Counted from the stretch's first letter, positions 24,063 to 42,907 are shown. The stretch is DNA of 64,000 bases from Candidatus Limnocylindrales bacterium (GCA_038250445.1 JBBSCI010000001.1:1524-65523); one strand, 5' to 3'. A program made the numbers and translations. The notes: generated from the sequence alone by a model not told the origin.

Positions 24063-24305
24063 TTGATCGCGACCGTCCGCTGGGCCGACGTCGACGAGGC
24101 GATTGCGCGCCGCGCAGGCGCCCTGGGCCGAACATGGCGACGCAGTCAGCAGGGCCTCGCGACCGCGGACCTCATCATCGCTGCGACCGCTGCGGAGCTC
24201 GGGCTCGAGCTGGCGACGCTGAACATCAAGCATTTCCCGATGTTCAAGGGTCTCCAGGCACCCTATCTCGGTAGCGGAGGCAAGCGATGGCGACCTACGT
24301 TCTGA
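24063..24305 (+). pseudogene. PIN-domain (VapC-like) toxin C-terminal remnant
   Basis: 80-aa ORF from TTG; ADLIIAATAAELGLELATLNIKHFPMF matches VapC C-terminal catalytic region; in-frame stop 23988-23990 removes the N-terminal half; no antitoxin gene upstream. Confidence 0.5.
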
Positions 24306-24989
24306 TCCCAGGTGCCGGCGGCGCTGGTTGGTACTGGCATCTCGTCGTGCCCGAGTTGGAGGCGCGAGGCCACGACGTCGTCGCGGTCGACCTTCCGGCG
24401 GGCGATGAGTCGGCGGGTTGGAACGAATACGCCGATGCGATCGAGCAGGCGATCGGCGACCGAACGGACCTCGTCCTCGTTGCCCAGTCCCTCGCCGGCT
24501 TCAGCGCCCCGATGGTCTGCGAACGGCAGCCCGTCGACCTTTTTGGTCCTCGTGAATTCGATGATCCCGCTGCCCGGCGAGACCGGCGGCGAGTGGTGGT
24601 CGAAGACCGGCCAGGCCGACGCGCAACGCGAGTACCTGGCGAGCACTGGACTGACGCCCGAGGCCGGGCAAGACCCCGAGGTCCTCTACTTCCATGACCT
24701 CTCGCCGGAGGTCAAGAAGGAGGCCTTTGAGCGCGGCGAACCGAACCAGTCGATGACGCCGATGAGCCAGCCGTGGCCGCTCAAGTCCTGGCCGGACGTC
24801 CCGACGAGAGTCCTTGTCAGCCGCGACGACCGGCTCTTCCCGGCCGCGTTCCAGCGGCGCATCGCCCGCGAACGCATCGGGACCGAGGCTGACGAGATCG
24901 ATGGCGGGCACCTGGTCGCCCTGAGCCATCCTCGAGAACTCGCGGAGCGGCTGGAAACCTACCGCGAGGCAGCGTCGAAGCGACGCTAG
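24287..24989 (+). pseudogene. Alpha/beta-hydrolase (methylesterase/esterase-like) interrupted by +1 frameshift in T5 run
   Basis: Frame A 24287.. MATYVLIPGAGGAGWYWHLVVPELEARGHDVVAVDLPA...VAQSLAGFSAPMVCERQPVDL; continues in frame B LVLVNSMIPLPGETGG...GGHLVALSHPRELAERL to 24989; switch at ttttt 24540-24544. Confidence 0.7.
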
Positions 24990-26866: not shown

Positions 26867-28891
26867 CTATGAGAGACCCGTACCAGCCAGTCGAGTACTA
26901 CCGTTCCCCGACGGCGGATTCGTGCGTGAATCGTCGTCGGACCTTGGCCGCTGGAGCGTCCAGGCAACGGCAATCGCGATCCCGACGACGATCAGCAGGT
27001 CGCCGATGCTGTACGCGTTCGCGAAGGGCCACGGCGGCGGCACCACGATGATGTCCGTCAGCGGGCGGAGATAGGGGTTGGCCAGCTCGATGGTGTTCGT
27101 GTAGCCGACCGCCGGCTGGTGCCCAGCTGCGAGCGATGTGGCGGGATCCACAGGCATGTAGCCGCCGTTCGCGACCACGGCGAGCAGGTTACTGAGGCCG
27201 CCCACGGCCGCGATCAACAGCCCCGGGATGCGGCGGTTGCGGACGACACAAGCCAGGACGGCCGCGCTCGTCAGGACATAGATGAACGGAGGGGCGCCGC
27301 CGGCGAGGGTGTTCACCGGCGGAAGGAAGAGGGCAGCCTGGACGAGGGCGGCGATGATCGCCAACGGAGCCCACTCGATGTGGGGGATCCGACCAACGAA
27401 CGACATCGGCCATCCGACGGCGCCAGTCGCGCCGACGAGCCACGGGCGGCTCGGGGAGGGTGCCGGAGACGGGGCCAGGCCCGGGGCTGCGGCGGCCCCT
27501 TCGGTTGAGGCCTCCTCATCGCCGAGACTACGGATTCGTCGCAGAGGACTCCAGAGCAGCCATCCGGCACTGGCCACGCCGAGGACGGCGGCCATGACGA
27601 GCGTCGCTCGGAGCCCGAACGCACCGCCGACCGCTCCCCCGAGCAGCGCTCCGACCGGGAGTGCGCCCCAGTCGAGCATTCGGAAGACGGCGTTCACGCG
27701 GCCCAGCGCCTCGCGCGGCGAGCGGCTCTGCCGAAGGACGAGGACATTCACGTTGTAGAACGGGATCGTCAAGGCCCCGAGGAACCTGCCCGCGAACAGG
27801 AATCCCACGGCCGCTGCTCCGGTGGCGAAGGGGAGAATGATCGTGGCGACCGCGGCCAGCAGGCTCGAGGCCACGAGAACGGGCCCGACCCCGAAGCGGC
27901 GGGTGGCGGCACCAACGGCGACGGCACCCACCAGGAATCCGACATTGCCGCCAGCGAGCAGGATCCCGATCGACGTGGCATCCATGCCGACCTCGGTGGC
28001 GGCATAGAGGATGAACACCGCCGCGATCGCCGAGCTCGCGAGATTGAAGGTCGCAGTTGATGCCGCCATGTCGCGAAGGATCCGGTCTCGCCCCACGATG
28101 CCGAGGCCGGCGAAGGCCGACCGCATGCCCCATCGATCCCGACGTGCCGTACGCGCGGCCTCAAGCTTGGCGACGCGGGCCTCGACCTGGGCCACGTAGT
28201 CCCAGACGTCCACGAGATGCCCGATCGATGCTTCAGTGTCAGGCGCAATCGTCGGCGAGGGCAGGGCGTCGCCCCGCATGTCGGCGTCGACGAGGGCCGT
28301 TGGCTTCCTGCGGGCGAACAGCAACCCGAAGGCGGCGACGAGGTACGAGATCGCATCAATGATCAGGGCACTGGGGCCGGCGACGGCCACGAGGGCACCG
28401 CCCAACCCGGGACCGACGGTCCGGGCTGCGGACTCGGACAGCTCGAGGCGTTGGTTTCCTGCGAGCAGTTCATCGGTATCGAGGAGGTCTGGGACGTACG
28501 TCTGGTACGCGACGTCGAAGACGACGCTGAACGACCCGATCAGAAATGACGTCAGGTAGAGCACCGGCAACGAGAGAGCGCCGAGCGCAACGCTTGCGGG
28601 GATCGACAGGAGCAGCGCAGCGCGGGCGAGGTTGCTGACGATCAGCAGGCGCTGTCGAGCGACCCTGTCGGCCAGGACGCCAGCCGGTAGCGAGAAAAGC
28701 AGGTATGGCAGCATCTCGACCGCGGCCAGAAGCCCCATTTCCCACGCCCCGGCATGCAGGGTCAGTGCCGCCAGAAGCGGGATTGCGACAAACGTCACCT
28801 GGCTGCCGAACAGCGAGACCGTCTCGCTCCACCACAGCCAGGAGAAGGCTCTGTTGCCCCGGAAGACGAACCAGCCGGCGATCCTGCGCAT
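26867..28891 (-). CDS. MFS transporter fused to C-terminal DUF5317-like membrane domain
   Basis: 674 aa; N-terminal ~12-TM MFS (enterobactin-exporter-like) with inserted coiled segment; Pro/Ser/Ala linker; C-terminal ~190 aa with 4-5 TM and ANGGYMPV motif; start overlaps HD-GYP stop at 28891. Confidence 0.75.
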   Translation of the reverse strand: MRRIAGWFVFRGNRAFSWLWWSETVSLFGSQVTFVAIPLLAALTLHAGAWEMGLLAAVEMLPYLLFSLPAGVLADRVARQRLLIVSNLARAALLLSIPASVALGALSLPVLYLTSFLIGSFSVVFDVAYQTYVPDLLDTDELLAGNQRLELSESAARTVGPGLGGALVAVAGPSALIIDAISYLVAAFGLLFARRKPTALVDADMRGDALPSPTIAPDTEASIGHLVDVWDYVAQVEARVAKLEAARTARRDRWGMRSAFAGLGIVGRDRILRDMAASTATFNLASSAIAAVFILYAATEVGMDATSIGILLAGGNVGFLVGAVAVGAATRRFGVGPVLVASSLLAAVATIILPFATGAAAVGFLFAGRFLGALTIPFYNVNVLVLRQSRSPREALGRVNAVFRMLDWGALPVGALLGGAVGGAFGLRATLVMAAVLGVASAGWLLWSPLRRIRSLGDEEASTEGAAAAPGLAPSPAPSPSRPWLVGATGAVGWPMSFVGRIPHIEWAPLAIIAALVQAALFLPPVNTLAGGAPPFIYVLTSAAVLACVVRNRRIPGLLIAAVGGLSNLLAVVANGGYMPVDPATSLAAGHQPAVGYTNTIELANPYLRPLTDIIVVPPPWPFANAYSIGDLLIVVGIAIAVAWTLQRPRSDDDSRTNPPSGNGSTRLAGTGLS

Positions 28892-30240
28892 CAGGCCCGG
28901 AGGACTTCCAGGTCCGACGAGAGGGGAGGCGCGTCAAGCTTGCGCTTGCCCTGATTCGGCGGGCGCCCGCTGTCGATGAGGGCCTCGTCGTCGTCCTCGA
29001 CCGGGACGTAGCCCTCCATCTCGAGGAACACGCGGATGACCTCCGGATCCCACTGCTCGCCAGCGCCCGCGGCCATCCGCCGCAATGCCTCCGTGCGTTC
29101 CATGGCCGCGCGATACGGCCGGTCCGAGGTCATTGCGTCGAACGCATCGACGACGGCGACGATCCGCGCGCCGCGGGGAATCGCTGTTCCGGTCAGCCCA
29201 TCTGGGTAGCCGCCGCCGTTCCACTGCTCGTGGTGATGACGGACGATCTCGGCGCCCGGGCGGAACTGGCGGAAGCCCGTCAGGATCTGCGCGCCAAGAT
29301 CGGTGTGCGTCCGCATCTTCGCCCGCTGGGCGGCGGTCAGGAGGCCCGGCTTCAGCAAGACGGCGTCAGGCACTCCGATCTTGCCGACGTCGTGGACTCC
29401 GGCGGCCTGTTCGATCAACGACACCTCGGCGTCGGACAGCCCGAGCGCCCGGGCGAGGCGGGCCGCGTGGCTGGCGACCCGCTCGGAGTGATGGAAGGTG
29501 CTCGCGTCGCGATGGTCGATGATCTGGGCAAGTGAGCGAACAGCGTCCTGCGTCTCAGACGCAAGCCGGCGGATATGGTCGAACGACTGGGCGATGACCC
29601 ACGCAGGAATCGCGATCAGGACGACGAGGAGCGGATCGATCGTCCAGATCAGCGCGTATTGGGCGCCGATCGCGGCGGCTGCGAGCTCCGGGGCGACCGT
29701 GCTGCTGTCCGGCCGCATCATCGCCCGCAGCGACCGCTGTTCGACGATCGCGAGGACGACGCTGAGGAGGGCGACGTTCACGACGAAGTACGTCAGGACG
29801 ACCGTGCCGACGGCCAGTGGACCGAGCAGGCCATCCACTCCAGGGGTGGGCCAGACGGTTGCTGCACGGCCCATCAGATATGACGCGAGCGAAGCCGTCA
29901 GCACGGTTCCACCGACGTTGAAGGTGACCCGCTCAGGCGGCGACCGACGGACGAGCTGCTCGAACAGGACCGCGAACCCGATCGAGAGGGCCGCTATCGG
30001 CGCCGGAACGAGCAGGATCGTCGCCACGTGGGGAACGCTGGCGATGGAGAAGCTGCCGCCCGACGGTAGCGGCACGCTCACGAACTCCAGCAGGATCGAA
30101 AACGGCAGCAACACCATCAGCGCAGGCACCCAGTCGACCGGCTGGGCACTCCATGTCGAGGGCAGCAGGAACGACCCTATGGCGAGGGCGGCCACGAGCG
30201 CGACGTAGGCGCGGAGGCGGACCTCCGTGGTCATGGTCAT
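28891..30240 (-). CDS. HD-GYP domain c-di-GMP phosphodiesterase with N-terminal multi-TM sensor domain
   Basis: HHSERVASHAARLA...VHDVGKIGVPD...RTHT...HHEQWNGGGYPDGL (HD-GYP); ~6 TM helices N-terminal; start taken at MTMTTEVRLRAY (comp 30238-30240); ORF-track start 30393 possible. Confidence 0.85.
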   Translation of the reverse strand: MTMTTEVRLRAYVALVAALAIGSFLLPSTWSAQPVDWVPALMVLLPFSILLEFVSVPLPSGGSFSIASVPHVATILLVPAPIAALSIGFAVLFEQLVRRSPPERVTFNVGGTVLTASLASYLMGRAATVWPTPGVDGLLGPLAVGTVVLTYFVVNVALLSVVLAIVEQRSLRAMMRPDSSTVAPELAAAAIGAQYALIWTIDPLLVVLIAIPAWVIAQSFDHIRRLASETQDAVRSLAQIIDHRDASTFHHSERVASHAARLARALGLSDAEVSLIEQAAGVHDVGKIGVPDAVLLKPGLLTAAQRAKMRTHTDLGAQILTGFRQFRPGAEIVRHHHEQWNGGGYPDGLTGTAIPRGARIVAVVDAFDAMTSDRPYRAAMERTEALRRMAAGAGEQWDPEVIRVFLEMEGYVPVEDDDEALIDSGRPPNQGKRKLDAPPLSSDLEVLRA

Positions 30241-30874
30241 CGCGGTCGCGTTTGGGAGCTCGGGGGCAGGTGGGTGATCGACATGCCTGACGGTGCGGTT
30301 GCGGGCCAGAGGGTATGGCTGGGTACCCTCGCACTCTGACGCTCGCGGTCGCCTCAGCCCATCGAACGATCGTACTGGCGCTGATCGCGCCAATAGAGAA
30401 GCACTGGCGAGCTAGGCCGCTCCGCCGACGTAGGCTCGTCGCGCGCTGAGAGCCTGGGCGCGCTGCTTGGATCTGCGGCGAGCGCGGTACCAGGCGAGGT
30501 AGTCGAGCAGCTCCTCGCGCTCGTACCCCGCTTCCCCGGATGCGCAAGTGCAGGGTGGAAGTCGATGGCCCTCGATCGAGGCGACAGGCCGGCCGTCAGC
30601 GATGCCACCACCGGTCGTCAGATCGGCAGGCCGGCGGCGGTCGACCTGCTCCGCAGCCTCGTGATCGTCGGGCTGGCGATCTTCGCCATTCTCGTGCTAC
30701 TTCCCGCGGCGATCGCCGCGCAAGCCGCCGTCGCGATCTGACGCGGGCGCCACATGAGACGGATCGGCCGCAACGGTCGGTCCGTCGACCACGACAAGGT
30801 GGTCCCCACTCGGACAGGGTTAGTCCGCAGGTAGAGGGTTGGCCCCAAGGGGGCCGCGAAAGGAACGAGTTTCG

Positions 30875-31141
30875 ATGGGACTCATCGCTTGGATCGTCGT
30901 CGGCGCAGTTGCCGGCTTCCTCGCGAACCTGGTCATGGGCACCCGTGAAGGTGTCTTGCTGACCGTCATTCGTGGGATCGTCGGCGCCCTGGTGGGTGGT
31001 TACATGGCAGCGACCGTCCTCAAGATCGGCACCGTCGATGGCATCAACGTCGAGAGCATCGTGATCGCCACGATCGGCGCAATCGTGGTCATCGTCGTGG
31101 CGAAGGCCCTGACCGGGTCGCGGAGTGCTCGGCACGCCTGA
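30875..31141 (+). CDS. GlsB/YeaQ/YmgE family stress-response membrane protein
   Basis: Internal ATG 30875 with AAGGAACGAG SD; MGLIAWIVVGAVAGFLANLVMG...IVGALVGGYMAATVLK. Confidence 0.8.
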   Translation: MGLIAWIVVGAVAGFLANLVMGTREGVLLTVIRGIVGALVGGYMAATVLKIGTVDGINVESIVIATIGAIVVIVVAKALTGSRSARHA

Positions 31142-31825
31142 GCGGCTCTCAGGGACGAAGACGCTTCACGGCGCCATGGTCTCGTAGTGGAGGCCGGCCC
31201 AATCGGGCCGGTCGTTCACCTCGTCGAGCTCGGGCCAGCGATCGGAACGATCGTGAGCGAGGCATCCGCACCGCCTTCGGACGCGGACGGACGCCGAGTC
31301 CCCTGAACCCCTGAGCCGATCGTCCGAGGCCTCGGCGAGCGCGGTCCGTCGCGATCTGTAATGCGCTCGCCAAGGCCTGTCGCCAAGTCGCCGAGGCCGT
31401 GGCGATGCTCGACAGCTCTTTCGCCAGTCCAGGCCGATCAAACCGGCCCTGGAGGCGATCACGGTTGGGACCGGCGCTCCCGCCCATCGGCCCGATCGTT
31501 CCGCTTGGCTGGAATGATCGGCCCTGATTCTGGTGAGCCCCGATGGTTCCACTGAAACGGAACGATCCCGGTAGGGGCGTGTCAGCGGCGAACGTGATCC
31601 GGGCCGTCTCCAGACGCCATCACATTCACGACGCCGGGAGGTTCCGACATCGACGGCGCGCGGAAGCGGATCGGCGATTCGGCGGCCTCGTGCGACGTGG
31701 TCCCTATTGCGACGCGGGTCGCCGGGAAGTCGTTTGCGCAGAGGCTCCCCACGACCGAGTCTGAGCGACAGCGTGCTTATCGTACTCATTGACACTCTCT
31801 CTGAATCACCGGTACCCTGTCTGAA

Positions 31826-32065
31826 ATGGTGACTCCCGTTCGCGCGCCTGCGCGGCTGCGCTCCCGAAACCAGCTGACTCTGCCGAACGACATCGTCGAG
31901 GCGGCCGGGATCGGCGAGGGCGACTCCTTCGTTGTCGAACTCGAACCGAGCGATCCGGACGTTGTCATCCTCCGTCGCGTCCGCTCCAGCTATGCCGGTG
32001 CGCTCAACGGGATGTACGCACCGGTGGATGAGTACCTCGAGGGAGAGCGCGCGGGCTGGGTCTAG
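31826..32065 (+). CDS. vapB: AbrB/MazE/SpoVT-type antitoxin (VapB-like)
   Basis: 79 aa, LTLPNDIVEAAGIGEGDSFVVE swapped-hairpin motif; TTGACA(31789)-18 nt-TACCCT promoter-like elements ending ~8 nt before ATG (possible leaderless mRNA). Confidence 0.8.
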   Translation: MVTPVRAPARLRSRNQLTLPNDIVEAAGIGEGDSFVVELEPSDPDVVILRRVRSSYAGALNGMYAPVDEYLEGERAGWV

Positions 32066-32068
32066 GCG

Positions 32069-32548
32069 ATGGCGGCGGCTGGGCTGGAACGTGCCATCGC
32101 TCCCGGCGCAACCCTGGTCGTGGACAGCTCGGCGATCCTCGGTTATCTCGACGCAAATGAGCGCATCAGCGGTGTCGCCGCCCACGTGTTCGACCGGCTT
32201 ATTGCCACAGGCCGCAATCGAGGAGTCGTGTCGACGATCGCGGTCGCGGAGGCACTGGTTCGCCCATTCCGGGTTGGATCGGCTTCGGCCGCCGGCACCA
32301 TTGAGGCGTTTTTCAGGAGTTTCCCCAACCTCTCGATTGAGCCGGTGTCGTACGAGTTCGCCCGTGAGGCTGCCCGTATCCGAGCGGCGACCGCGCTCCG
32401 CACGCCTGACGCGATGATTTTGGCCACCGCATCGGTGATCGGAAGCGCGATCGTGGTGGCGAACGACAGCGGATGGCTCGATGCGATCGAGCAGGCCGGT
32501 CTGACGGTCCGCCTCTGCCACCTCGACGCGTTCATCGGGGAGACCTGA
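32069..32548 (+). CDS. vapC: PIN-domain ribonuclease toxin VapC
   Basis: 159 aa, starts 4 nt after vapB stop; LVVDSSAILGYLDANE ... DAMILATASVIGSAIVVANDSG PIN acidic residues. Confidence 0.85.
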   Translation: MAAAGLERAIAPGATLVVDSSAILGYLDANERISGVAAHVFDRLIATGRNRGVVSTIAVAEALVRPFRVGSASAAGTIEAFFRSFPNLSIEPVSYEFAREAARIRAATALRTPDAMILATASVIGSAIVVANDSGWLDAIEQAGLTVRLCHLDAFIGET

Positions 32549-32639
32549 GGCTCCAGCACGACACGCAAGACCCTGATGAGGCGAGTCGACGCCGCGGAAT
32601 CATCCTTGACGGTCGGCCTATCGTGGACGCACGGCGGGC

Positions 32640-34373
32640 ATGAGCAGCCAGTCGAAATTGGAGCGCCCCGTGACCGCTGGCGAGGCTGCCGAGCGACTGG
32701 TCTGTGACCGGCTTCGGGCCGCCCTCCCGCCCGAGTACCGCATCTTCTCGAACGTCGCCTGGCTCGGCCGGACGGCCGAGCATCGGGGGCTCAGGGATGG
32801 CGAGGCGGACATCGTGCTCGCCCATCCCGATCGGGGCTTCCTCGTCTTCGAGGTCAAGTCGGGCGAGATTCAGCGCGACGCGCACGGCCGCTGGTACGCC
32901 GGCAGCCGCGAGCTCAAGCCGAGCCCCTTCGAGCAGGCGATGACGAGCATGCATGCCCTCATGAACAAGCTCGCCGAGCTGCCCGATGCGCCGCGCAACT
33001 TCAAGCCGATCGCCGGCCACGCCGTCGCCCTGCCCGACGTCGATCTCGCCAGCGCCGGCCATCGGCTGAAGCTCATCGGGCCCGGGATCGAGCCTGACCT
33101 CGTGTTCGATCGGGCCAAGCTGCCGATCGACGACCCCGACGCGACCTGGAAGGCTGTCGAGCAGGCGTTCACCCTGTGGGCCGGCGACTCCGGCGACCAC
33201 CGCGCGCCGGGGGCAAAGGGCGTCCATCTGCTCGAGGAGATCCTCGCGACGCCGATCGCCCTCCGGTCCCTGCTCCGTGGCGAGATCGCCGACGGCGAGC
33301 GGGAGGTCGTCGCCCTGACCCAGCACCAGATCGGCGTCCTGCGGCGGCTGCAGCGGAATCGGCGCGTCCAGATCGTCGGTGCCGCGGGGACCGGCAAGAC
33401 GATGCTCGCGGCCGAGAAGGCCCGACGGCTCGCGCTCGAGGGCTTCGAGACGCTGCTCGTCTGCTTCAACCAGCCGCTCGCCCGCCTCCTCGTCGAGGAG
33501 ACCGCCGACGCGGCGAAGCGGAGCGGTCGGCTGACCGTGTCGACCTTCCATCAGCTCTGCGAGGACCTCGCCCGCGAGGCTGGCACGCTGCCGAAGAAGC
33601 CGAAGCCCGTGACGGCCGAGTGGTTCAGCGAGACCCTGCCGGAGGCGCTCGACGACGCGCTGTTCGAGCTGGGGCCGAAGTTCCACGCGATCGTCATCGA
33701 CGAGGGCCAGGACTTCGACGCCGATTGGCTGCTGTCACTCGAGGCGCTCCTGTCGGACCCGAAGGACGACGTCCTGTACGTCTTCCACGACCCCGCCCAG
33801 GCGATCTATCGCGACGACGTCGTCGAGAGCCTCGGGCTGACCTCGTTCGAGCTCGACGAGAACTGCCGCAACCCGGGGCCGATCCACGCGTTCGCGATGG
33901 ACCACGCGCCCGACGCGCCCGCGACCGTGCCGTTGCGGGAAGAGGGTAGGGAGGTGGAGGTGATCGAGGCGGAGGCGGGGGCGCCGACGCTGGAGGCGCT
34001 GCGCCGCGTCCTGCATCGCATCCGGGTCGACGAGGGCGTCCGGCCGTGGGAGATCGCGGTGCTGGTCGGCGGGTCGCTGGAGGAGTCGGCGGTCTGGAAG
34101 GAACGTCGGTTCGGCAACGAGCTGCTCTGGAACGGCCAGGTCGACGATGCAGGGAAGTCGATCGGCCTGGCGGCCAAAGCGGTGCCGGCCCAACCGAACG
34201 ACGCGATCCTGTGCGACTCGATCCGCCGCTTCAAGGGACTTGAGAAGCCGGTGATCGTGCTGGTGGAGTTGAAGCCGGACGACGAGCGGTTGGAGCGACT
34301 GCTCTACATCGGGTCGAGCCGAGCTCGGCAGCACCTCATAGTCATTTCTGCTTCTCGACAAGTCCCAGGCTGA
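32640..34373 (+). CDS. NERD-domain nuclease fused to superfamily-1 (UvrD/PcrA-like) helicase
   Basis: 577 aa; N-terminal NERD (GEADIVLAHPDRGFLVFEVKSGEI); Walker A IVGAAGTGKTMLA; Walker B AIVIDEGQDF; motif VI LLYIGSSRARQHLIVI. Confidence 0.8.
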   Translation: MSSQSKLERPVTAGEAAERLVCDRLRAALPPEYRIFSNVAWLGRTAEHRGLRDGEADIVLAHPDRGFLVFEVKSGEIQRDAHGRWYAGSRELKPSPFEQAMTSMHALMNKLAELPDAPRNFKPIAGHAVALPDVDLASAGHRLKLIGPGIEPDLVFDRAKLPIDDPDATWKAVEQAFTLWAGDSGDHRAPGAKGVHLLEEILATPIALRSLLRGEIADGEREVVALTQHQIGVLRRLQRNRRVQIVGAAGTGKTMLAAEKARRLALEGFETLLVCFNQPLARLLVEETADAAKRSGRLTVSTFHQLCEDLAREAGTLPKKPKPVTAEWFSETLPEALDDALFELGPKFHAIVIDEGQDFDADWLLSLEALLSDPKDDVLYVFHDPAQAIYRDDVVESLGLTSFELDENCRNPGPIHAFAMDHAPDAPATVPLREEGREVEVIEAEAGAPTLEALRRVLHRIRVDEGVRPWEIAVLVGGSLEESAVWKERRFGNELLWNGQVDDAGKSIGLAAKAVPAQPNDAILCDSIRRFKGLEKPVIVLVELKPDDERLERLLYIGSSRARQHLIVISASRQVPG

Positions 34374-34791
34374 CGTGCGCGGGCTACGTCAGGATCGCTC
34401 AATCCTGAATGTCGCCGACCCCTGGTAGGTTCTCGACAATCTCGTCGCTTGCCACGGAGTGCAGGGCCGCACTCTCTGCCAGGAGCCGGGACACCTTCTT
34501 GCGCAGATCTAGCGCTCGGCGTTCGCCGGCCACCGAGATGGTCGTCTGCTCCGCGATGTCCATGGTGGTCCGCCACGCGATAATCTGCCCGAGCGATCAT
34601 TCGATGAGCGATTTCGCTGTCGACGCAGGCGGCCCTCGAGTCCCGGCCGAGTATCGACACCAGAGACTCGAGCCTCAAGCGTCGAGCTCGACAGCGAGGG
34701 TCCATACACGCTTTAGCGGAAGCTCTGCGCGAACATCCTCGTCGAGCTTGTCGTAGTTCGCGAACAGCGCATTCAGGAATGCTGTCTGGTC

Positions 34792-35703
34792 TCACAGTCG
34801 AATCCGAAAGTAGGCAGTGCGTGCCTCTTTGAGCACAGTCTCCTTGAACCCCGCCCAGCAAACCAATAGACCTTGGTCTGCGCCGTAGTTGGACATCACT
34901 CCCTTCAAGGCGATCAGAACGTCCGTTCCGGCTGGACTGTCGCCAGTCTTCACCTGCACAAGGAGGCGAGGCGCGTCGAGTCCAAGTGAACCGCCTGACG
35001 CCACGATATCTACTCCGCCATCTGGTCCCGGCGGAGAAACGTAAGTCTGCAGGCCTTGAGCTCGCAGCACGGCCTCCACGAGTCGAGCGAGGCCGTGACC
35101 CTTAAACCGTCGCCGGACATAGGTCAGGATCGCATCGCGGCCGACCTGTTCGAGATCTATCGGTGCCTCCTCAGCACCGAGTTCCTCCGTATCGCGATCG
35201 ACTCTCGCCTCGACAATCTTGCCTTTCCTCGCACCGACGGCCGCAAGGACCCTTTCCTCGGCGTGGTCGCGTCGGACCGTGCAGACCGTCATGAACGCTC
35301 CAAACGAGTACAGGAGGTCTTGGTCGAAGTCGGTTCGAGGGACGTCCGTTCGGTACCACTTCACGGGCACCGTGTGCCGCATGTCGGCCCCGAATTCGTC
35401 CGTCTCTTTGTAGGGCCCTGCGACCGACCCGACGGCGATCTGACCCCGGGACTTTAGTGGGACGACGACCGTGTCCGCGTTGTTGATGACGTGGGCGAAG
35501 GCCCACAGCTGCCCGACCACATTGTTTACGCGGCCGTCGCCGTCCGCGGGGTACGTCGTTCGGTACGCGGCTTTCAGGGTGTCCCGGCTGACAAACGCGC
35601 CGAGGTCGCCAACTTCCTCCCATCCCATGCCGAGGACCGAGTTGGTGAGCATGCGCTCTTCCCGCTCACCGTTGGTGCCCCCCTTGACCACCCAAAGCGT
35701 CAT
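34792..35703 (-). CDS. Mrr-like type IV restriction endonuclease (Mrr_cat PD-(D/E)xK C-terminal domain)
   Basis: C-terminus PGPDGGVDIVASGGSLGLDAPRLLVQVKTG...LLVCWAGFKETV aligns with E. coli Mrr catalytic region (GGIDGII...YVQAKRW...FITTSGFT); N-terminal domain uncharacterised. Confidence 0.75.
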   Translation of the reverse strand: MTLWVVKGGTNGEREERMLTNSVLGMGWEEVGDLGAFVSRDTLKAAYRTTYPADGDGRVNNVVGQLWAFAHVINNADTVVVPLKSRGQIAVGSVAGPYKETDEFGADMRHTVPVKWYRTDVPRTDFDQDLLYSFGAFMTVCTVRRDHAEERVLAAVGARKGKIVEARVDRDTEELGAEEAPIDLEQVGRDAILTYVRRRFKGHGLARLVEAVLRAQGLQTYVSPPGPDGGVDIVASGGSLGLDAPRLLVQVKTGDSPAGTDVLIALKGVMSNYGADQGLLVCWAGFKETVLKEARTAYFRIRL

Positions 35704-35722
35704 TGACTCTCTCCGAAAAGTC

Positions 35723-36442
35723 TCATGGTTGCCAGTAGGCGAAGACGTCCGCTACCGCTCGATCCCAGAGTTGAGCCTCGGTCTCGCCCGGCCTCGCATA
35801 GGCGACCTTATCCATCGCGACGAGGAACCCTTCGCCCGGACGTCTCGTCTGTTTGCGGACGACGATCGGAGTCAATGGCGGGCGGCAATGCGCCTTCTCG
35901 TACTCGGCGATCCGGTAGAGGTAGCCCCCGATATGGCCGCGACCTCCTGGGAGCTCGCCATAGGCGATTGTGCGCCCAGCGATCGCGGCTTCCAGCAGGC
36001 GAAAGTAGACGTCGGTTCGGAACTGCCCGGACAGTCCCGTCCTCTGCGGATCGCGCGCCCGCTGACCAGTGAGCGCCTTTGTCCCGTTCGCGACCGTCCG
36101 TTGAATGTTCGCGCCATCCGGCTTCTGATGATCGTTCGAGTACTGCCTAAGGGCGCCGTCAAAGGTTCGCATCGGGACAGCAGCACCGGCTGCCATCGAA
36201 CGGCATGCCTCCGTGTACGCCCGCCAGAATCGGAACGAGTAGTTGGCGGGCGGAGTATCGACGCCGAGATTCCAGAGGGCTCGGTAGTCGATGATCGGAT
36301 AGGGATCCCGGTGGCCGAGGTGGAGCAGAACTGACGCAGTCGGGTATTGAACGCCGTCCAGCTGGGATCCGTGCCCTCTCTTCGGTCGTTGAAAGAGCTC
36401 TCCGAGGCACTCGTTCAACGGTCGCCGCTTCGTTCGACTCAC
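35723..36442 (-). CDS. Hypothetical protein upstream of Mrr-like nuclease (possible partner)
   Basis: 239 aa GTG-start ORF, 19 nt from Mrr-like gene on same strand; no recognisable motifs. Confidence 0.5.
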   Translation of the reverse strand: MSRTKRRPLNECLGELFQRPKRGHGSQLDGVQYPTASVLLHLGHRDPYPIIDYRALWNLGVDTPPANYSFRFWRAYTEACRSMAAGAAVPMRTFDGALRQYSNDHQKPDGANIQRTVANGTKALTGQRARDPQRTGLSGQFRTDVYFRLLEAAIAGRTIAYGELPGGRGHIGGYLYRIAEYEKAHCRPPLTPIVVRKQTRRPGEGFLVAMDKVAYARPGETEAQLWDRAVADVFAYWQP

Positions 36443-36482
36443 ACCGGCGCCGGCTCCGGGGCGACTTCCAGAAGGCTACGGC

Positions 36483-38594
36483 GTGGAATTCCTTGCGGGT
36501 GAACCGCTTCCGGGCCTTCGCTGTCAGCCCGATTGCCTCAACCTCGGCGACGCCGCCGCATTCCAGACCGCCGTTAACGCCCTTACAGCGACGGGTGGTG
36601 GCGACACGCCTGAAGCGCAGCTGTCCGGGATCATGTCGGCGCTCAACGGCCTGACCTGGCTTGACGGCGCGACAAAGGCCGTCGTTGTCATCACCGACGC
36701 CACCGGCAAGGATCCGGAGCCCGTCACCGGTTTCACCCGGGCGTCCGCCAACCAGCGAGCGCTGGAGATTGACCCTGTCGCTATCTACGGCGTCAATGTC
36801 TCGACCCTTCAGAGTGTCGCCGACTGGATGGCCCCACTGGCAACCGGCACAGCGGGAGACGTCGTCACGCTCGCTCCGGGCCAATCGCTGTCTGACGCCC
36901 TGTCCAATCTGTTCGAATCTGCCCACGCAAACCCAGTCGCCAAGCTGAGCGGCCCGTACGTCGCTCAGACCGGGACTGCGATCAACTTCAGCGCCGCCGA
37001 CTCGTTCGATGCGTCGGCGACGATCACGAGCTACAAGTGGGACTTTGACGGAAACGGGACCGTCGACCGGACAACGGCAACGCCGACGACCTCGTTCACC
37101 TATGCGGGCGAGTTCCACGGGATCGCTTCGGTCGAGGTCGTCGCCGACGACGGCCGCTCGGCGCTGGCCACAACCCAGGTCACGGTCGACTCGGTCGGCC
37201 TCGCCAACCTCCAACCGATCGCGGTGACCTCCGCAACGGCCACCGTGACCGGCGCCAGCCAGGTGACCGTCACCTGGACGCCGGCCGCTAACGATCGAGC
37301 GGACGGGTACAAGGTCTATCGCGCGAACGGAACGCCCATTCGATTCACGACCGCGGCCGACCCGGATTCGGCGGTCCTCGACGGGATCAGCCTGAGCCAA
37401 CCTGTTCAGTTCTATGTCCGAGCGGTGAATGGCTACGGGGAGAGTGCGTCGGCCGCAACCGCGCCCGTCGGCGGGAACCCGCCTGGCTGGCAACCATCGC
37501 AGGTCGTGGACAGTCAGGCGACGGGTTCGTCAGCGGAAATCTCCCTTGGGCCTGATGGCCGTGGGTACGCCGTTTGGCAAAGCGGGGGCATCCAATTTGC
37601 CCGCTGGGACCCCGTGACGGGCTGGGGAGCGAGGGTTCGCGTCAACCCAGCGACGGCAAACTCGAAGGTCGCGCCCACGATTGGTGTCGACAGCGGCAAC
37701 AATGCGTATGCAACGTGGACGGACTACGTCAACGGCACCAGTAATCCCGATATCTACTTCTCAAAGCGTCCGTCATCCACCGGGACGTGGGGCACAGCCG
37801 TCAAGGTCAGCGCCGATACGGGCACGGCAGAACAACGCGACGCCCAGATCGCGGTGCTCGCGAACGGCAGCGCCATCGCCGTCTGGGTCGATCGGAGAAG
37901 CAGCCAGTGGAACATCTACTCGTCCCGGCTGGCAGCCGGAGCATCGGTCTGGGGAACAAACGTCAGAGCAACGTCTAATACCTCCAACACGGTTGAGAAG
38001 TCCACGCCGCGCGTTGTCCTCGGCAGCGACGGGACGGCATACGCTGTCTGGTCCGATGCCCGGAACGGCAATCTCGATATCTGGTACGCAACGCTGGCTC
38101 CTAGCGCGTCCGCATGGAGCACGAATGTCAAGGTCAGTGACGACACTGGTTCGGCAGCTCAGACCAAGCCGAGTATCGGCATGGACTCGACCGGCAATCT
38201 AACCGTTGCATGGCTCGACGCGCGCGTCAGCACAGGGCAGGTCAGGGTCGCCAGTCGCCCCGCCGCTACTGGCATATGGAGCGCAAGCGCCCTTGTCTCT
38301 GACTCGGCAGCGCGTCCATTGAGCCTGGACATGGCGGTTCGATCCGACGGCCGGGCCGCGATCGGCTGGGAAGACGTACGCTCCATCAACGACCTCTGGG
38401 GCACCGAAAAGCCGTCGCCTTCGCAAGGCTGGCAGGCGCCCACACTGTGGAGCGATACGACAGTCGGCAAGATGGATGGTCGTCCTGCGCTGGCAATCGA
38501 TGGGCAACGTCTCGCCGTGATCTGGGATGCGCCGAACAAGCTTGTCATTGGTGCCGCACCCGGCAATGTCCATGCAAGATTCAAGCAGCTTTGA
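36483..38594 (+). CDS. N-terminally truncated VWA - PKD - fibronectin III - BNR/Asp-box repeat protein (possible pseudogene/insertion scar)
   Basis: GTG start; begins inside a VWA domain (GGGDTPEAQLSGIMSALNGLTWLDGATKAVVVITDA, no MIDAS DxSxS upstream because upstream DNA is the antisense of gene 35723..36442); PKD (YKWDFDGNGTVDRTTATPTTSFTY); FN3 (VTWTPAANDRADGYKVYRANG); repeated S/TxDxGxTW Asp-boxes. Confidence 0.65.
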   Translation: MEFLAGEPLPGLRCQPDCLNLGDAAAFQTAVNALTATGGGDTPEAQLSGIMSALNGLTWLDGATKAVVVITDATGKDPEPVTGFTRASANQRALEIDPVAIYGVNVSTLQSVADWMAPLATGTAGDVVTLAPGQSLSDALSNLFESAHANPVAKLSGPYVAQTGTAINFSAADSFDASATITSYKWDFDGNGTVDRTTATPTTSFTYAGEFHGIASVEVVADDGRSALATTQVTVDSVGLANLQPIAVTSATATVTGASQVTVTWTPAANDRADGYKVYRANGTPIRFTTAADPDSAVLDGISLSQPVQFYVRAVNGYGESASAATAPVGGNPPGWQPSQVVDSQATGSSAEISLGPDGRGYAVWQSGGIQFARWDPVTGWGARVRVNPATANSKVAPTIGVDSGNNAYATWTDYVNGTSNPDIYFSKRPSSTGTWGTAVKVSADTGTAEQRDAQIAVLANGSAIAVWVDRRSSQWNIYSSRLAAGASVWGTNVRATSNTSNTVEKSTPRVVLGSDGTAYAVWSDARNGNLDIWYATLAPSASAWSTNVKVSDDTGSAAQTKPSIGMDSTGNLTVAWLDARVSTGQVRVASRPAATGIWSASALVSDSAARPLSLDMAVRSDGRAAIGWEDVRSINDLWGTEKPSPSQGWQAPTLWSDTTVGKMDGRPALAIDGQRLAVIWDAPNKLVIGAAPGNVHARFKQL

Positions 38595-38687
38595 ATGATC
38601 AACTCCAGGACTCACGGAGCGCCCGCGCCGAATCGGCGCGGGCGCATCAAATTCCATTCGTAAGCCAGCCGGCCGCGGTCACTTGAC

Positions 38688-38714
38688 CTAGGCGGGGCCA
38701 CCGCGACCGCCTAG
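38688..38714. terminator. Hairpin between convergent genes (possible bidirectional terminator)
   Basis: ctaggcgg-ggccaccgcga-ccgcctag, 8-bp stem/11-nt loop overlapping amidase stop; no U-tract. Confidence 0.3.
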
Positions 38715-40444
38715 CGCAGCGGCAGCAGCCTCCCGTTCCCGTTCCGCTCTGGAACGGCCGTCCGCTTGTCGCCGTTCGACACCGGCTGGCGCGCCGCCAA
38801 ATCCGGGCCGATCGACGGGATGAACTGCGGTGGAACCCGAACCTTCGTCGCCTGCTCGAAGTCGTAGGCGAAGCCGATCAGCTTCGGTTCGTCCCAGCGG
38901 CCGCCGATGAACGACACGCCGATCGGTAGCGGCCCGACGTGGCCCGCCGGCACCGTGATGTTCGCGTAGCCGGCGATCGCGGACGGGCTCGACGAGCCGA
39001 CGAACGTCGAGAAGTCGCCGCCCAAGTCGCCCTCTTCTGGGTTCGAATTCGTCACCCAGGCCGGCCCGTTCGTCGGCGCGATGATCGCGTCGAGGTCGAA
39101 CGCGGCCAGCGTGTCATTGATCGCATCCTGGGCAGTCGATGTCGCGGTCGCCCGGGCGGCATCGCATGACGCGGTGCCACGCCCGCCGGTCGCCTGCGCC
39201 ATGTCGAAGATGTCTGAGTTCCACGGCCCTTCCAGCTCCGGATGGGCGTTGTTGAAATCGATCAGGTCGTGGAGCGTCTTCGGATATCGATGCTTGGTAT
39301 ACGTCTCGAGGTAGCCCGCGATGTCGGTCTTGAACTCGCAGAGGAGCGCGTCGAACTCCGGCCCGTAGGCGGGCTCGATCGGGATCCTCGTGTTGTCGAC
39401 CACGATCGCCCCCTCCGCCCGGAGCGCGTCGATCGTGTCGTTCAGGACCGCGTCGACCTCCGGGCTGACGGCCGGGTCGTACGTTCCCTCCCGCCAGACG
39501 CCGATCCGGGCCCCACGGAGGGCGCGCTTGTCGAGGAACTTCGTGTAGTCCCTGAAGGCATGACCGCGCTGATCGGCGGTCGCGGGATCGTCCCGGTCGA
39601 CGCCAGTGAGCGCCCCGAGGAGCACGGCCGCGTCGGTCACGTTGCGTGTCATCGGCCCGGCGGTGTCCTGGTCGGCCGAGATCGGGACGATGCCCGCCCG
39701 GCTCAGCAGGCCGAGTGTCGGCTTGATCCCGACGATGCCGTTCGCGCCCGACGGGCAGACGATCGAGCCGTCTGTCTCGGTCCCGACCGCGACAGTGGCG
39801 AGGTCAGCTGCGACGACGACGCCCGAGCCCGAGCTGGAGCCGCATGGGTTGCGATCGAGGACATACGGCATGTTCGTCTGGCCGCCGATGCCGCTCCAGC
39901 CGCTCGACGACGGTGCCGACCGGAAGTTGGCCCACTCGGACAGGTTTGCCTTGCCGATGATGATCGCGCCGGCGTCACGGAGTTGATCGACGATGAACGC
40001 ATCGTGCGGCCTGCTGCCGAACAGCGCGAAGGAGCCCGCGGTCGTCGGCATACCGGTCGTGTCGATGTTGTCCTTGACGATGACCGGGATTCCGAGGAGG
40101 GGTCGGTGGTCGCCATGGCGCCGGGCCCTGTCCGCCTTCCAGGCGTCGCGGAACGCCGTCGGGCTGACGGTGATCACCGCGTGGAGCTTCGGATTGAGCC
40201 TCTTGATCCGGTGGAGGTAGAACTCGACGAGCTCGACCGATGTCAGCTTGTGGCGGTTCATCAACTTCTGGAGCTGGGGAATCGTCGTCGAGTCAACGTC
40301 GATGCCGTGGATGGACGTCCCGCTGCCGCCTCTCGAGGCCGAGGCGATCGGCGCCGTGATGCCGGCCACCCCGAGCAAGAGGGCCATCACGGTGGCAAGA
40401 ATCAGGGAACGTCGAACCGGGCTGCTCATCGCACGGACCTCCAC
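38711..40444 (-). CDS. Secreted amidase (amidase-signature family)
   Basis: Signal peptide SLILATVMALLLGVAGITAPIASA; KDNIDTTGMPTTAGS and GGSSSGSG amidase signature. Confidence 0.85.
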   Translation of the reverse strand: MEVRAMSSPVRRSLILATVMALLLGVAGITAPIASASRGGSGTSIHGIDVDSTTIPQLQKLMNRHKLTSVELVEFYLHRIKRLNPKLHAVITVSPTAFRDAWKADRARRHGDHRPLLGIPVIVKDNIDTTGMPTTAGSFALFGSRPHDAFIVDQLRDAGAIIIGKANLSEWANFRSAPSSSGWSGIGGQTNMPYVLDRNPCGSSSGSGVVVAADLATVAVGTETDGSIVCPSGANGIVGIKPTLGLLSRAGIVPISADQDTAGPMTRNVTDAAVLLGALTGVDRDDPATADQRGHAFRDYTKFLDKRALRGARIGVWREGTYDPAVSPEVDAVLNDTIDALRAEGAIVVDNTRIPIEPAYGPEFDALLCEFKTDIAGYLETYTKHRYPKTLHDLIDFNNAHPELEGPWNSDIFDMAQATGGRGTASCDAARATATSTAQDAINDTLAAFDLDAIIAPTNGPAWVTNSNPEEGDLGGDFSTFVGSSSPSAIAGYANITVPAGHVGPLPIGVSFIGGRWDEPKLIGFAYDFEQATKVRVPPQFIPSIGPDLAARQPVSNGDKRTAVPERNGNGRLLPLR

Positions 40445-40967
40445 GGGGGAACAGGGTGGGGCACTCGCTGGCTGGGGCGCTGGGGTTCCTCTCTATTGGA
40501 CTCCAGCTGTCAAGGCAGCGGAATAGCCAGCCCATCGGGCGTGACCGTCAGTCATCAAGATCGGCAATTCCGCGGGATTGCGAGAGCGTCGCCAGGCCCT
40601 CGAGCCAGTTTCGGGACCGTGAGTCATGGAGGGGCGCGGACACGATCCAATCGGCCCACCGTCGACTGGCTTGGGCCAGGTCTTGTTGACTTGGAGTCTC
40701 GGCTTACCCCTGCCCCGTCCGTGGACGATGACTTCGGCACCGCCGGCGACGGCCGACCTCAGACGCGAGTCGGCCACCGTGCCGAGAACACGCCGGACCA
40801 GGGCGCCTCGAATTCGGTCGGCGCGGCGACGGTCGTCGAGCGAGGCGTTCTTCGGTCATCCGACACGAATCTAGTTCGTTTGGACCTCGACTTCGCGGCG
40901 ACGACCGTCGAGAATCCGGGTCCGTTCCCCATGGCGTTGCCATGCGCGGCGGACTGGAGGATCGACG

Positions 40968-41510
40968 ATGAAGATACGACCCACGTTCGCACTCCTCGGC
41001 GCCTTGTCCCTTGGGGTGATGGCCTGTTCGAGCCCCGCTGGATCGACGAGCCCCGCTGGATCGACGAGCCCCGCAGCTTCGGCAAGTGCTGCAGCTTCGA
41101 CAAGTCCTGCAGCTTCGACAAGCGCCGCCGCAAGCTCGGGGGCCGCGGGTACGGCGGTACAGGTGACGCTCCAGGAATGGGCGGTCGCAACCGACGTAGC
41201 GACGGGCCCGGCCGGGGCGTTCACGTTCACCGCGAGCAACACAGGGCCTGATGACGTGCACGAGTTCGTGGTCATCAAGACCGACCTCTCGCTCACCGAT
41301 CTCCCGACCGACGCCACGGGTGCAGTTGACGAGACGAAAAGCGGCATGGAGGTCATCGATGAGATCGAAGACATCGCGGTGGGCACGAGCGAGGAACTGG
41401 CGGTGACCCTCGAACCGGGCGCGTACGTCCTCATCTGCAACATCTACGACGAAACAGAGAAAGAGTCGCACTACCAGAAGGGAATGCGGACCTCGTTCAC
41501 GGTGACCTGA
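40968..41510 (+). CDS. Lipoprotein with cupredoxin-like (EfeO-N/blue-copper-like) domain and Ser/Pro/Ala tandem-repeat linker
   Basis: Lipobox LGVMAC; linker SPAGSTSPAGSTSPAASASAAASTSPAASTSAAAS encoded by perfect 18-bp direct repeats (41030-41140); candidate His/Cys/His/Met ligands (HEFVV, LICNI, SHYQ, KGM). Confidence 0.7.
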   Translation: MKIRPTFALLGALSLGVMACSSPAGSTSPAGSTSPAASASAAASTSPAASTSAAASSGAAGTAVQVTLQEWAVATDVATGPAGAFTFTASNTGPDDVHEFVVIKTDLSLTDLPTDATGAVDETKSGMEVIDEIEDIAVGTSEELAVTLEPGAYVLICNIYDETEKESHYQKGMRTSFTVT

Positions 41511-41874
41511 TGAGCGCGAGCCCAGCGTCAACTCGGGCGCCTTGCGCCCGGCGCCGCCGCCCGCCTTCGCGGTCCGATCCTCGCCCTCTCAATCGAGCCG
41601 CGGCCGGCCGGCGTCACGAAGCTCGCGGGCACTGACTTCTGGCGCCTTCGCGTCGGCGACCTCCGCGTCAACTACCTCGTCGATGACGATGCGAGGCTGG
41701 TCATCGTCCTCAGGGTCGCTCGGCGTTCCGAGAGCACGTACCGCCAAGTCGATCGATGATCGTATTGATCTTGTCCTGTGCGATAGTACCGACCTTCGGT
41801 CGGGCAGCCCGAGACGCCGCCGACCGATAGCGGGCGCCACGCGCGTGCCGCCTGAGAGAAATGGTGGAGGACCA

Positions 41875-42837
41875 ATGAACCAGCCGACCAGAATCATGGC
41901 GCTCCTAGCCGGGATCGTCTTCGTCGCATCAGCCTGTTCGACCAGCGGAGGAGCTTCTGCGTCACCGAGCGCCGCCGCATCGGCGGCGTCCAACGCGCCG
42001 TCGACCAGCGCATCCGCGGAGCCGTCCGCGTCCGCGTCCGCATCGGTCGATCCGTCGTCGCTGCTCGGGATGGTGATTTCGACCGGCAAGATCCGGATCT
42101 CGACCGACCCGAACTACAAGCCGTTCTCGTACCTCAATCCCGACGGCAGCGGATCCTACTTGGGCTTCGATACCACGACCGCCGAGGAGGCGGTCAAGCG
42201 CCTGGGCCAGAAACTGGGCAAGGACGTCACGATCCAGTGGGAGACTCCCGGCTGGGACCTCATCACCGCTGGCAGCTGGGGCGGCCGCTGGGACATCTCG
42301 ATCGGCTCGATGAGCGTGACCGTCGGCCGCGCCAAGGTCGTCGACTTCGTCGATCCGTATTACTACGACTCCGGGGCCGTCGCCGTCCCGAAGGACTCGC
42401 CGATCCAATCGCTGGCCGAGCTCGACGGTGGCAAGACGTTCTGCGTCGGCACCGCAACGACCTACGAGCAGTGGCTGAACGGCACCCTGGAGATCGTCGA
42501 TCCGAACATCGTCAAGGCACCAACGGACCCCCAGGTCACGGCCCTGCCGACGGACAACGAGTGCATCCAGGCCGTCGGCTCGGGACGCAAGTTTGACGCG
42601 ATCGTCGCGAACGCCAATGGTCTCGCCGACGCGGCGAAGATTGCGCCGATCCGCGTCCTGGACGGGCCGCCCATCTTCACCGTGTCGGTTGCATTCGCCC
42701 TCGACAAGAAAGGCCCAGACGACAAGGCGCTCCTCGCGCTCTTGAACGAGGTCGTCGCCGAGATGCACGCCGACGGCACGCTCTCGCAGTTGTCGACCAA
42801 GTGGCTCGAGAAGGACGTCACCCAGAAGCCGACTTGA
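41875..42837 (+). CDS. ABC transporter substrate-binding lipoprotein (polar amino acid, family 3)
   Basis: Internal ATG 41875 with GGAGGA SD; lipobox FVASAC; Ala/Ser-rich linker; SBP_bac_3-like body. Confidence 0.85.
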   Translation: MNQPTRIMALLAGIVFVASACSTSGGASASPSAAASAASNAPSTSASAEPSASASASVDPSSLLGMVISTGKIRISTDPNYKPFSYLNPDGSGSYLGFDTTTAEEAVKRLGQKLGKDVTIQWETPGWDLITAGSWGGRWDISIGSMSVTVGRAKVVDFVDPYYYDSGAVAVPKDSPIQSLAELDGGKTFCVGTATTYEQWLNGTLEIVDPNIVKAPTDPQVTALPTDNECIQAVGSGRKFDAIVANANGLADAAKIAPIRVLDGPPIFTVSVAFALDKKGPDDKALLALLNEVVAEMHADGTLSQLSTKWLEKDVTQKPT

Positions 42838-42907
42838 TCGAGGTTCCGGTTTGTTCCAGGTTGCGCGCCCGGCGATCGTCGTCCGGGCGCGCACCTGAAT
42901 CACGTGC

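Follow-up and report, generated by a model that had tools for sequence, protein, structure and literature searches.

Does a cluster of defence-type genes beside a truncated neighbour represent a single acquired island, or a patch of chromosome that gained and lost genes piecemeal? The question is raised by a locus in a 64,000-nucleotide stretch of DNA from Candidatus Limnocylindrales bacterium (GCA_038250445.1 JBBSCI010000001.1:1524-65523), the whole of which is referred to here as the window. Within it, a VapBC toxin-antitoxin pair, a nuclease-helicase fusion and an Mrr-like restriction nuclease gene lie close together, next to an incomplete gene for a VWA-domain protein. A first-pass annotation, made from the sequence alone, took these genes for a compact horizontally acquired defence island inserted into a host gene. 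Defence-type genes do cluster here, the VWA gene is truncated and composition is atypical over part of the region, but a single compact insertion into a host gene does not emerge from the present analysis. Rather, this is probably a chromosomal patch of accessory genes with a history of multiple independent gains, deletions and point mutations, and not one mobile island. Its left half (30.8-34.4 kb) contains intact genes for GlsB, VapBC and a NERD helicase. Its right half (34.4-38.6 kb) would consist of four non-functional remnants of low G+C content at third codon positions (GC3), derived from a GIY-YIG-like gene, the Mrr-like gene, a gene of 8-oxoguanine DNA glycosylase (OGG) fold and a cutinase-VWA-PKD gene. 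Domain content, lesions, a gene-gene junction, composition and polymorphism with respect to a near-identical contig are directly observed and are described in turn.

Among the genes of the window, whose G+C content is about 68 %, are ftsZ and those for arginine biosynthesis and ABC transporters, from which it is judged to be chromosomal; the host sequence is the chromosome of an uncultured member of the Chloroflexota. Gene calls were checked against Pfam, PADLOC and NCBIfam profiles. An independent assembly is provided by two Logan contigs from run SRR19962013. The first, L088, covers 31042-34234 at 100 % identity, and the second, L001, covers 34205-43426 at 99.967 % identity, with three differences in 9222 bp; together they reproduce window positions 31042-43426, including the junction at 36548|36549 considered below. 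The contigs of this run end at 31042 and at 34205-34234, L088 and L001 overlapping by exactly 30 nt, and these ends look like assembly-graph branch points arising from strain variants or repeats in that sample.

At the right-hand edge of the supposed island, the 703-residue open reading frame (ORF) at 36483-38594(+) yields a VWA_4 match that covers the 169-position profile only from position 57 onwards. Its homologues, of about 1050 residues, possess a signal peptide, a PF01083 cutinase domain, a full VWA domain, and PKD and repeat domains, and comparison with them identifies 36549-38594(+) as the remnant of a secreted cutinase-VWA-PKD-fn3 repeat protein. The homology begins at window position 36549, corresponding to homologue residues 361-369. 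The first ~360 codons, spanning the signal peptide, the cutinase domain and the VWA domain up to its midpoint, are missing, and were found nowhere in the 64-kb window, left boundary included. The GTG at 36483, where the 703-residue ORF starts, lies antisense inside the neighbouring remnant and is fortuitous. The right neighbour had thus been described correctly as starting inside its VWA domain, although the boundary lies at 36548|36549 and not at 36482. Since chance open frames persist in G+C-rich DNA, the intactness of the 703-residue frame is weak evidence of function. Spurious antisense ORFs occur at 39242-41251(+) (669 residues, opposite an amidase gene) and at 31166-32521(-) (451 residues, opposite vapBC). 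A second VWA-domain protein in the window, of 471 residues (56941-58356(-)), is complete and unrelated to the truncated cutinase-VWA gene.

Immediately to the left of the VWA remnant lies the gene that had been listed as an unknown partner upstream of the Mrr-like nuclease. Its open frame is a 239-residue ORF at 35723-36442(-), for which no Pfam, PADLOC or NCBIfam match was obtained, the family to which it belongs having itself no Pfam or NCBIfam model. Homologues are 298-334 residues long, and tblastn with these sequences revealed upstream homology in another reading frame, running from 36548 to 36366 and equivalent to residues ~34-94 of the homologue P0097. Reading of the codons locates an 11-nt frameshifting deletion right after an ATC (Ile) codon near 36362-36366, while the first ~25-33 codons, with the start codon, are absent. 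The same sequence, 11-nt deletion included, is found in L001. Judged on its reading frames, then, the feature at 35726-36548(-) is a 5'-truncated, frameshifted pseudogene belonging to an uncharacterised family of ~300 residues with an OGG-glycosylase fold. The ORF that had been noted exists, but as part of a pseudogene reaching to 36548.

The limits of homology of these two genes meet without a spacer. That of the partner, on the minus strand, ends at 36548 and that of the cutinase-VWA protein, on the plus strand, starts at 36549, making 36548-36549 a head-to-head junction of two divergent, 5'-truncated genes. That both lack their 5' ends where they abut points to deletion or illegitimate recombination and not to clean insertion. 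Since L001, an independent assembly, spans the junction, a chimeric assembly is argued against.

The Mrr-like gene itself (34678-35703(-)), containing DUF8426 and Mrr_cat domains and corresponding to the PADLOC candidate PDC-S02, appears to be inactivated. Its open part, 303 residues at 34792-35703(-), matches PF04471 Mrr_cat with an E-value of 7.9e-18 and PDC-S02 with one of 6e-111, and the nuclease previously reported here is to that extent present; it is, however, interrupted by an in-frame TGA at 34792-34794 (W304*). Past the TGA the frame runs for a further 37 codons, bearing the canonical C-terminus of the family, and its true end is a stop at 34678. Codon 304 is TGG in the L001 allele, giving an intact product of 342 residues with PF28530 and PF04471 on record. 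The family is very large, with members of 335-345 residues, and the two closest homologues (77 % and 67 % identity) adjoin type I restriction-modification genes, one of them also a GmrSD-type gene.

All three differences between the window and L001 in 9222 bp fall within 156 bp of the Mrr nuclease domain, at 34947 (S253T), 34914 (L264I) and 34792 (W304*); the probability of three random single-nucleotide polymorphisms clustering this tightly is P ~8e-4. Alignment with 119 homologues shows no exception to S253, the residue that immediately follows the catalytic Q-V-K (119/119), or to W304 (118/118), and Ile at position 264 is found in none of the 119. Since its residues are off-consensus at invariant positions, the window allele is the derived one and, to judge from these substitutions, presumably a loss-of-function allele. 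Recoding of the TGA is unlikely, given TGG in the sister allele and the use of TGA as a normal stop elsewhere, at the end of a 58-residue ORF (30739-30741) and of the GlsB gene (31139-31141). A diversity-generating retroelement was considered as the source of the clustered changes, an idea suggested by the coding-strand A at all three window sites, and was excluded, since the window contains neither a template repeat, or other copy of the segment, nor a reverse transcriptase, and the changes run in the wrong direction.

A further damaged gene, unlisted in the first-pass annotation, lies between the Mrr-like gene and the helicase. This 54-residue ORF (34399-34563(-)) aligns in phmmer searches (hits P0263-P0266) only with residues ~92-142 of proteins of 139-147 residues, so that the first ~90 codons are absent; no N-terminal remnant was found in the window by tblastn, and the 3' end of the Mrr gene sits where the 5' part should be. 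Judged from these alignments, it is probably a 3' gene fragment from a GIY-YIG-like family of ~140-147 residues, the resemblance of the family's N-termini to GIY-YIG being weak (E-value 0.037). Two other incomplete-looking ORFs were observed farther to the left. That of 80 residues at 24063-24305(+) matches only positions 71-111 of the 120 in the PIN profile (E-value 5.6e-4) and is probably another truncated PIN/VapC gene; in the ORF at 24312-24989 the match is confined to the C-terminal half of the Abhydrolase_6 profile.

Composition was assessed through GC3 z-scores relative to a background of 41 other window ORFs (mean 0.837, standard deviation 0.043). The lowest values are those of the Mrr-like gene (-2.7, GC3 0.72) and the partner (-2.7), followed by the VWA remnant (-2.0, GC3 0.75), the 54-residue fragment and VapC (each -1.7), GlsB (-1.3) and VapB (-1.1). 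The NERD helicase stands at +1.7 (GC3 0.91), and the flanking HD-GYP and amidase genes at 0.0 and +1.2, respectively. The atypical block is therefore 34.4-38.6 kb, which includes the supposed host VWA gene, while 30.8-34.4 kb is host-like or mildly deviant. The earlier impression that the island is poorer in G+C than the arg or ABC regions thus holds only for the right part, where z of the three large remnants, that of the VWA gene included, runs from -2.0 to -2.7, and not for the helicase. For the block at 34.4-38.6 kb we infer a foreign origin from its low GC3. A second compositionally atypical patch, ~7 kb to the left of the cluster, is formed by a 796-residue ORF (21506-23896(+)) that has the lowest GC3 of the background genes (0.74) and a weak PGAP1-like alpha/beta-hydrolase match.

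Signs of mobility were not encountered. The 64-kb window has no tRNA gene and no Rfam match, and no integrase, transposase or DNA methyltransferase occurs among the genes scanned in it. The att-like direct repeats envisaged for the boundaries did not materialise either: the only matches there were imperfect, 14-34 nt long and at chance level, and none brackets the region.

A genome scan with the HD-GYP protein of the left flank produced one usable relative, an uncultured Chloroflexia metagenome-assembled genome (MAG), L008, in which synteny amounts to two genes only, those for MFS-DUF5317 (79 % amino-acid identity) and HD-GYP (71 %). Past the break L008 has ASCH-domain, MFS transporter, acyl-ACP thioesterase, acylphosphatase, DNA polymerase III delta' (holB-like) and NYN-domain genes, all absent from the window; L008 lacks the cluster genes, and synteny never resumes. 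With a break at the left edge and no resumption, an island cannot be delimited. The MFS-DUF5317 gene (26867-28891(-), 674 residues) encodes an MFS transporter fused to a C-terminal DUF5317, and both this fusion and its adjacency to HD-GYP are conserved in L008. A scan of metagenome contigs gave nothing above ~55 % partial identity, and exact-protein look-ups returned only contigs of the same population, or nothing.

Nor is the association of the Mrr-like gene with its partner conserved, as a two-gene system would require: the pairing is seen in none of three distinct partner contexts and neither of two Mrr contexts (L004/L005, L006, L007, L169 and L170). Full-length partner homologues follow a UDG-family gene (L004/L005), accompany an integrase and a transposase (L006) or lie among unknown genes (L007). 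No flanking sequence is common to the window and any of these contexts, and the damaged genes are not neighbours of each other in any other genome examined.

How, then, should the locus be read? Had 30.4-36.5 kb arrived as one acquired defence island that split a resident VWA gene, with the Mrr-like nuclease and the gene upstream forming a two-gene system, one could account for the clustering of defence-type genes, the 5' truncation of the VWA gene, the end of synteny with L008 exactly at 30393, and GC3 values for the Mrr gene and its neighbour that are lower than any other in the window. We nevertheless consider this unlikely: the VWA 5' part is nowhere in the window, so that there was no simple split; the gene on the island side has lost its 5' end at the same nucleotide; it is the VWA remnant that is compositionally atypical, and not the NERD helicase; neither att repeats nor a tRNA or integrase was found; and the Mrr/partner pairing went unseen in five other contexts. 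The same lack of mobility genes and boundary repeats would fit a region that is ancestral and vertically inherited, the low GC3 of its right half reflecting AT-biased decay of old pseudogenes. The left-half genes lie within ~1.7 standard deviations of host GC3, the remainder of the window is chromosomal, with its arg genes, ftsZ and ABC transporters, and gene decay is common here, to judge from further fragments such as the PIN remnant at 24063-24305. Against such long decay, the Mrr-like gene is intact in a contig of 99.97 % identity and already has a GC3 of 0.72. Moreover, its closest homologues are found in restriction-modification clusters of unrelated genomes, and the settings of partner homologues differ, a mobile region with an integrase being among them; both patterns are typical of horizontally moving genes, and purely vertical descent accordingly strikes us as improbable.

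Highly improbable, in our estimation, is an origin of the stop codon, frameshift and head-to-head junction in faulty metagenome assembly or consensus calling. It is true that the source is apparently a MAG contig, that the three Mrr differences are single-base changes and that the Logan contig breaks at 31042 and 34205-34234 indicate micro-diversity in the population. However, the junction and the 11-nt deletion recur in L001 without a single base changed, the three Mrr sites being its only differences, L088 reproduces 31042-34234 exactly, and a chimeric join would not be common to two different assemblers. Separate gains and losses within a chromosomal patch remain our preferred explanation, and several points weigh against it. 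A single, moderately distant relative does not fix the ancestral arrangement or the order of events. The low GC3 of the right half could in part be due to AT-biased decay and not to foreign origin, and errors of consensus calling or assembly in the MAG could account for the three Mrr differences. Some activity could be retained by the 303-residue Mrr product and by the 703-residue VWA product, both still open frames, and the 54-residue ORF might be a complete small gene, some family members in databases being equally short (54 and 69 residues).

Under the piecemeal history that we favour, successive arrivals in the low-GC3 stretch would have been truncated, frameshifted or, most recently, inactivated by a nonsense mutation. 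A single deletion or illegitimate recombination at 36548|36549 probably removed the 5' ends of both the OGG-fold and the cutinase-VWA genes together with their promoters and everything between. The intact Mrr-like protein would be a type IV-style nuclease cutting modified DNA, and its gene would be the latest to be knocked out here, by the nonsense change. The set of three derived changes in 156 bp, against zero in the other 9 kb, admits a bolder interpretation, which we regard as distinctly doubtful: that inactivation of a type IV nuclease in this natural population was selection-driven or locally targeted, perhaps triggered by the acquisition of a DNA modification that turned the enzyme toxic to its own host, and that the OGG-fold family represents a new class of modified-base-recognising protein.

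The fold of this family was assigned through an AlphaFold (AF2) model of the full-length homologue P0097, with a predicted local distance difference test (pLDDT) score of 88. OGG enzymes, of archaeal, bacterial and human origin, fill the first 11 places among the Foldseek matches in the PDB and the majority of the first 50; the best, 3knt, has an E-value of 7.6e-3, a probability of 1.0 and a template modelling score, normalised to the target, of 0.42-0.50. One family member, P0116, contains PF21790, 'putative OGG-like protein', in its N-terminal half. In the HhH-GPD motif Pro presumably replaces the catalytic Lys, with the Asp kept, which we treat as a lead only. The ~100-residue C-terminal domain is predicted with a confident fold (pLDDT 92.5), and Foldseek found no structural match for it in the PDB. 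The only lead here is a ribosomal-S25 winged-helix-like sequence match that is not significant (E-value 0.24); an MGMT/ATL-like fold, suggested by a motif, was discarded in the absence of a Pfam match or a Foldseek match in the PDB. A full-length member lies 10 nt after a UDG-family gene, in the same orientation, at L004 7457-8960 and L005 2651-4154, these being two MAG assemblies whose protein carries the NCBI name Candidatus Limnocylindrales. This adjacency hints at a base-excision or modified-base function for the family.

The left half of the region presents a different picture. Functions of its intact genes are those that we infer from established knowledge of PIN/VapBC and PD-(D/E)xK-SF1 enzymes. 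The VapB-like antitoxin (31826-32065(+), 79 residues) has an AbrB/MazE fold according to PF04014 (E-value 3.1e-5), with a score of 24.3 bits that is just under the gathering cut-off of 24.7, and matches TIGR01439 AbrB with an E-value of 7e-3. Only 3 nt past its stop codon starts vapC (32069-32548(+)), which encodes an intact PIN-domain toxin of 159 residues whose PF01850 match (E-value 3.1e-10) is above the gathering cut-off. The acidic residues D19, E61, D114 and D133 can be read from the translation, and an identical copy is present in L088. The pair matches no PADLOC model, as expected for a plain toxin-antitoxin pair. VapB proteins bind and neutralise the PIN RNase VapC and repress the operon; freed VapC cuts RNA and arrests growth. 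The window pair would thus be an active type II toxin-antitoxin module.

Downstream of vapC, at 32640-34373(+), an intact gene of 577 codons encodes a stand-alone NERD (PD-(D/E)xK) nuclease fused to a superfamily 1 (SF1)/UvrD helicase. Pfam places NERD at residues 14-114 (E-value 3.5e-12) and UvrD-helicase, AAA_19 and UvrD_C_2 across 239-569; the PADLOC models RTasNERD-Hel (4e-52) and C3a187 'NERD+UvrD' (2e-31) are matched over their full length, and the translation shows the D...E-V-K motif of NERD as well as both Walker motifs (A and B) and motif VI. The PADLOC Nhi model gives a marginal match of 49 residues (226-274, E-value 5.7e-4), not a full-length one. No reverse transcriptase domain was detected by Pfam or PADLOC among the neighbouring ORFs scanned, the immediate neighbours being vapC and the GIY-YIG-like fragment, and without an adjacent reverse transcriptase this is not a defence-associated reverse transcriptase (DRT) system. 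Plasmid homologues, of 30-34 % identity, are stand-alone genes annotated as 'NERD domain-containing protein'. The protein, Nhi-like in architecture, would be expected to unwind and degrade invading DNA. On both the complete VapB/VapC pair and the NERD-SF1 fusion the first-pass annotation is borne out.

Further left, the GlsB/YeaQ/YmgE-family gene (30839-31141(+)) encodes an intact small membrane stress protein, matching PF04226 (E-value 1.5e-7) and, under the model's cut-off, NCBIfam PRK10457 (E-value 4.7e-17). The gene had been counted among those of the defence island; present it is, but GlsB is not a defence gene. Between it and vapB stretches a gap of 684 bp (31142-31825), without an Rfam match, that presumably holds the vapBC promoter. 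It contains an imperfect inverted repeat upstream of vapB at 31494-31567, with 28-nt arms of 79 % complementarity and an 18-nt loop. The ~675 bp of non-coding DNA once taken for the left edge of the island correspond to this gap, an internal one. The region's left flanking gene, outside the cluster, encodes an HD-GYP domain protein (28891-30393(-), Pfam HD_5 7e-37); it is the last to be syntenic with L008, and DNA homology ends at 30393. A 58-residue ORF at 30565-30741(+), without a family match in NCBIfam, is a possible, uncertain small membrane-protein gene, its first, second and third codon positions (GC1/GC2/GC3) showing a coding-like pattern. Such a pattern is also seen on the minus strand at 30412-30540 and, weakly, at 31166-31320 within the gap, in each case with no start codon and no family match; these stretches may be more gene remnants in 'non-coding' gaps.

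For annotation, the consequences are practical. Pipelines call the 303-residue product a 'restriction endonuclease', the 157- or 239-residue product hypothetical and the 703-residue product a VWA protein, all three being remnants, and a count of defence systems in this MAG would be inflated unless the lesions are recognised. The region is otherwise ordinary and leaves the current understanding of defence islands unchanged. It offers two points of modest interest. The first is that a loss-of-function allele of the Mrr-like gene occurs naturally, its derived changes clustered; alongside the intact gene in a near-identical contig, it provides a small natural example of recent defence-gene loss. 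The second is the uncharacterised OGG-fold family, of ~300 residues and found beside a UDG-family gene in a Limnocylindrales MAG, a candidate for biochemistry.

Set beside known systems, the individual genes differ in how closely they conform. The VapBC pair shares with type II toxin-antitoxin modules the order of antitoxin then toxin, the 3-nt spacing, a PIN toxin with four acidic residues and an AbrB/MazE-type N-terminus, and nothing about it is unusual, apart from an antitoxin score just below the Pfam gathering threshold. A published listing (PMC10952713) gives NERD for Nhi-like and Mokosh type I systems. With Nhi and Nhi-like proteins (bioRxiv 10.1101/776245) the helicase has in common a single polypeptide made up of an N-terminal NERD nuclease and a C-terminal SF1/UvrD helicase, although its match to the Nhi profile is only marginal; the reverse transcriptase-associated NERD-helicase models of PADLOC are matched full-length, yet no reverse transcriptase gene is adjacent. 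The Mrr-like gene resembles the Mrr-family type IV nucleases of PDC-S02 (~340 residues) in its full-length match and in an Mrr_cat domain with Q-V-K, and departs from them in S253T and in W304*, which leaves no complete ORF of ~340 residues in the window where L001 is intact. Likeness to OGG, an HhH-GPD enzyme, is seen in the predicted fold of P0097 and in the PF21790 domain of P0116, while the family adds a C-terminal domain of ~100 residues and is represented in the window by a pseudogene, truncated and frameshifted. As a whole, the region lacks the integrase, att site or tRNA of defence islands and variable hotspots, and its boundaries are not definable. What it shares with them is that toxin-antitoxin, nuclease-helicase and restriction genes are grouped together, accompanied by pieces of former occupants.

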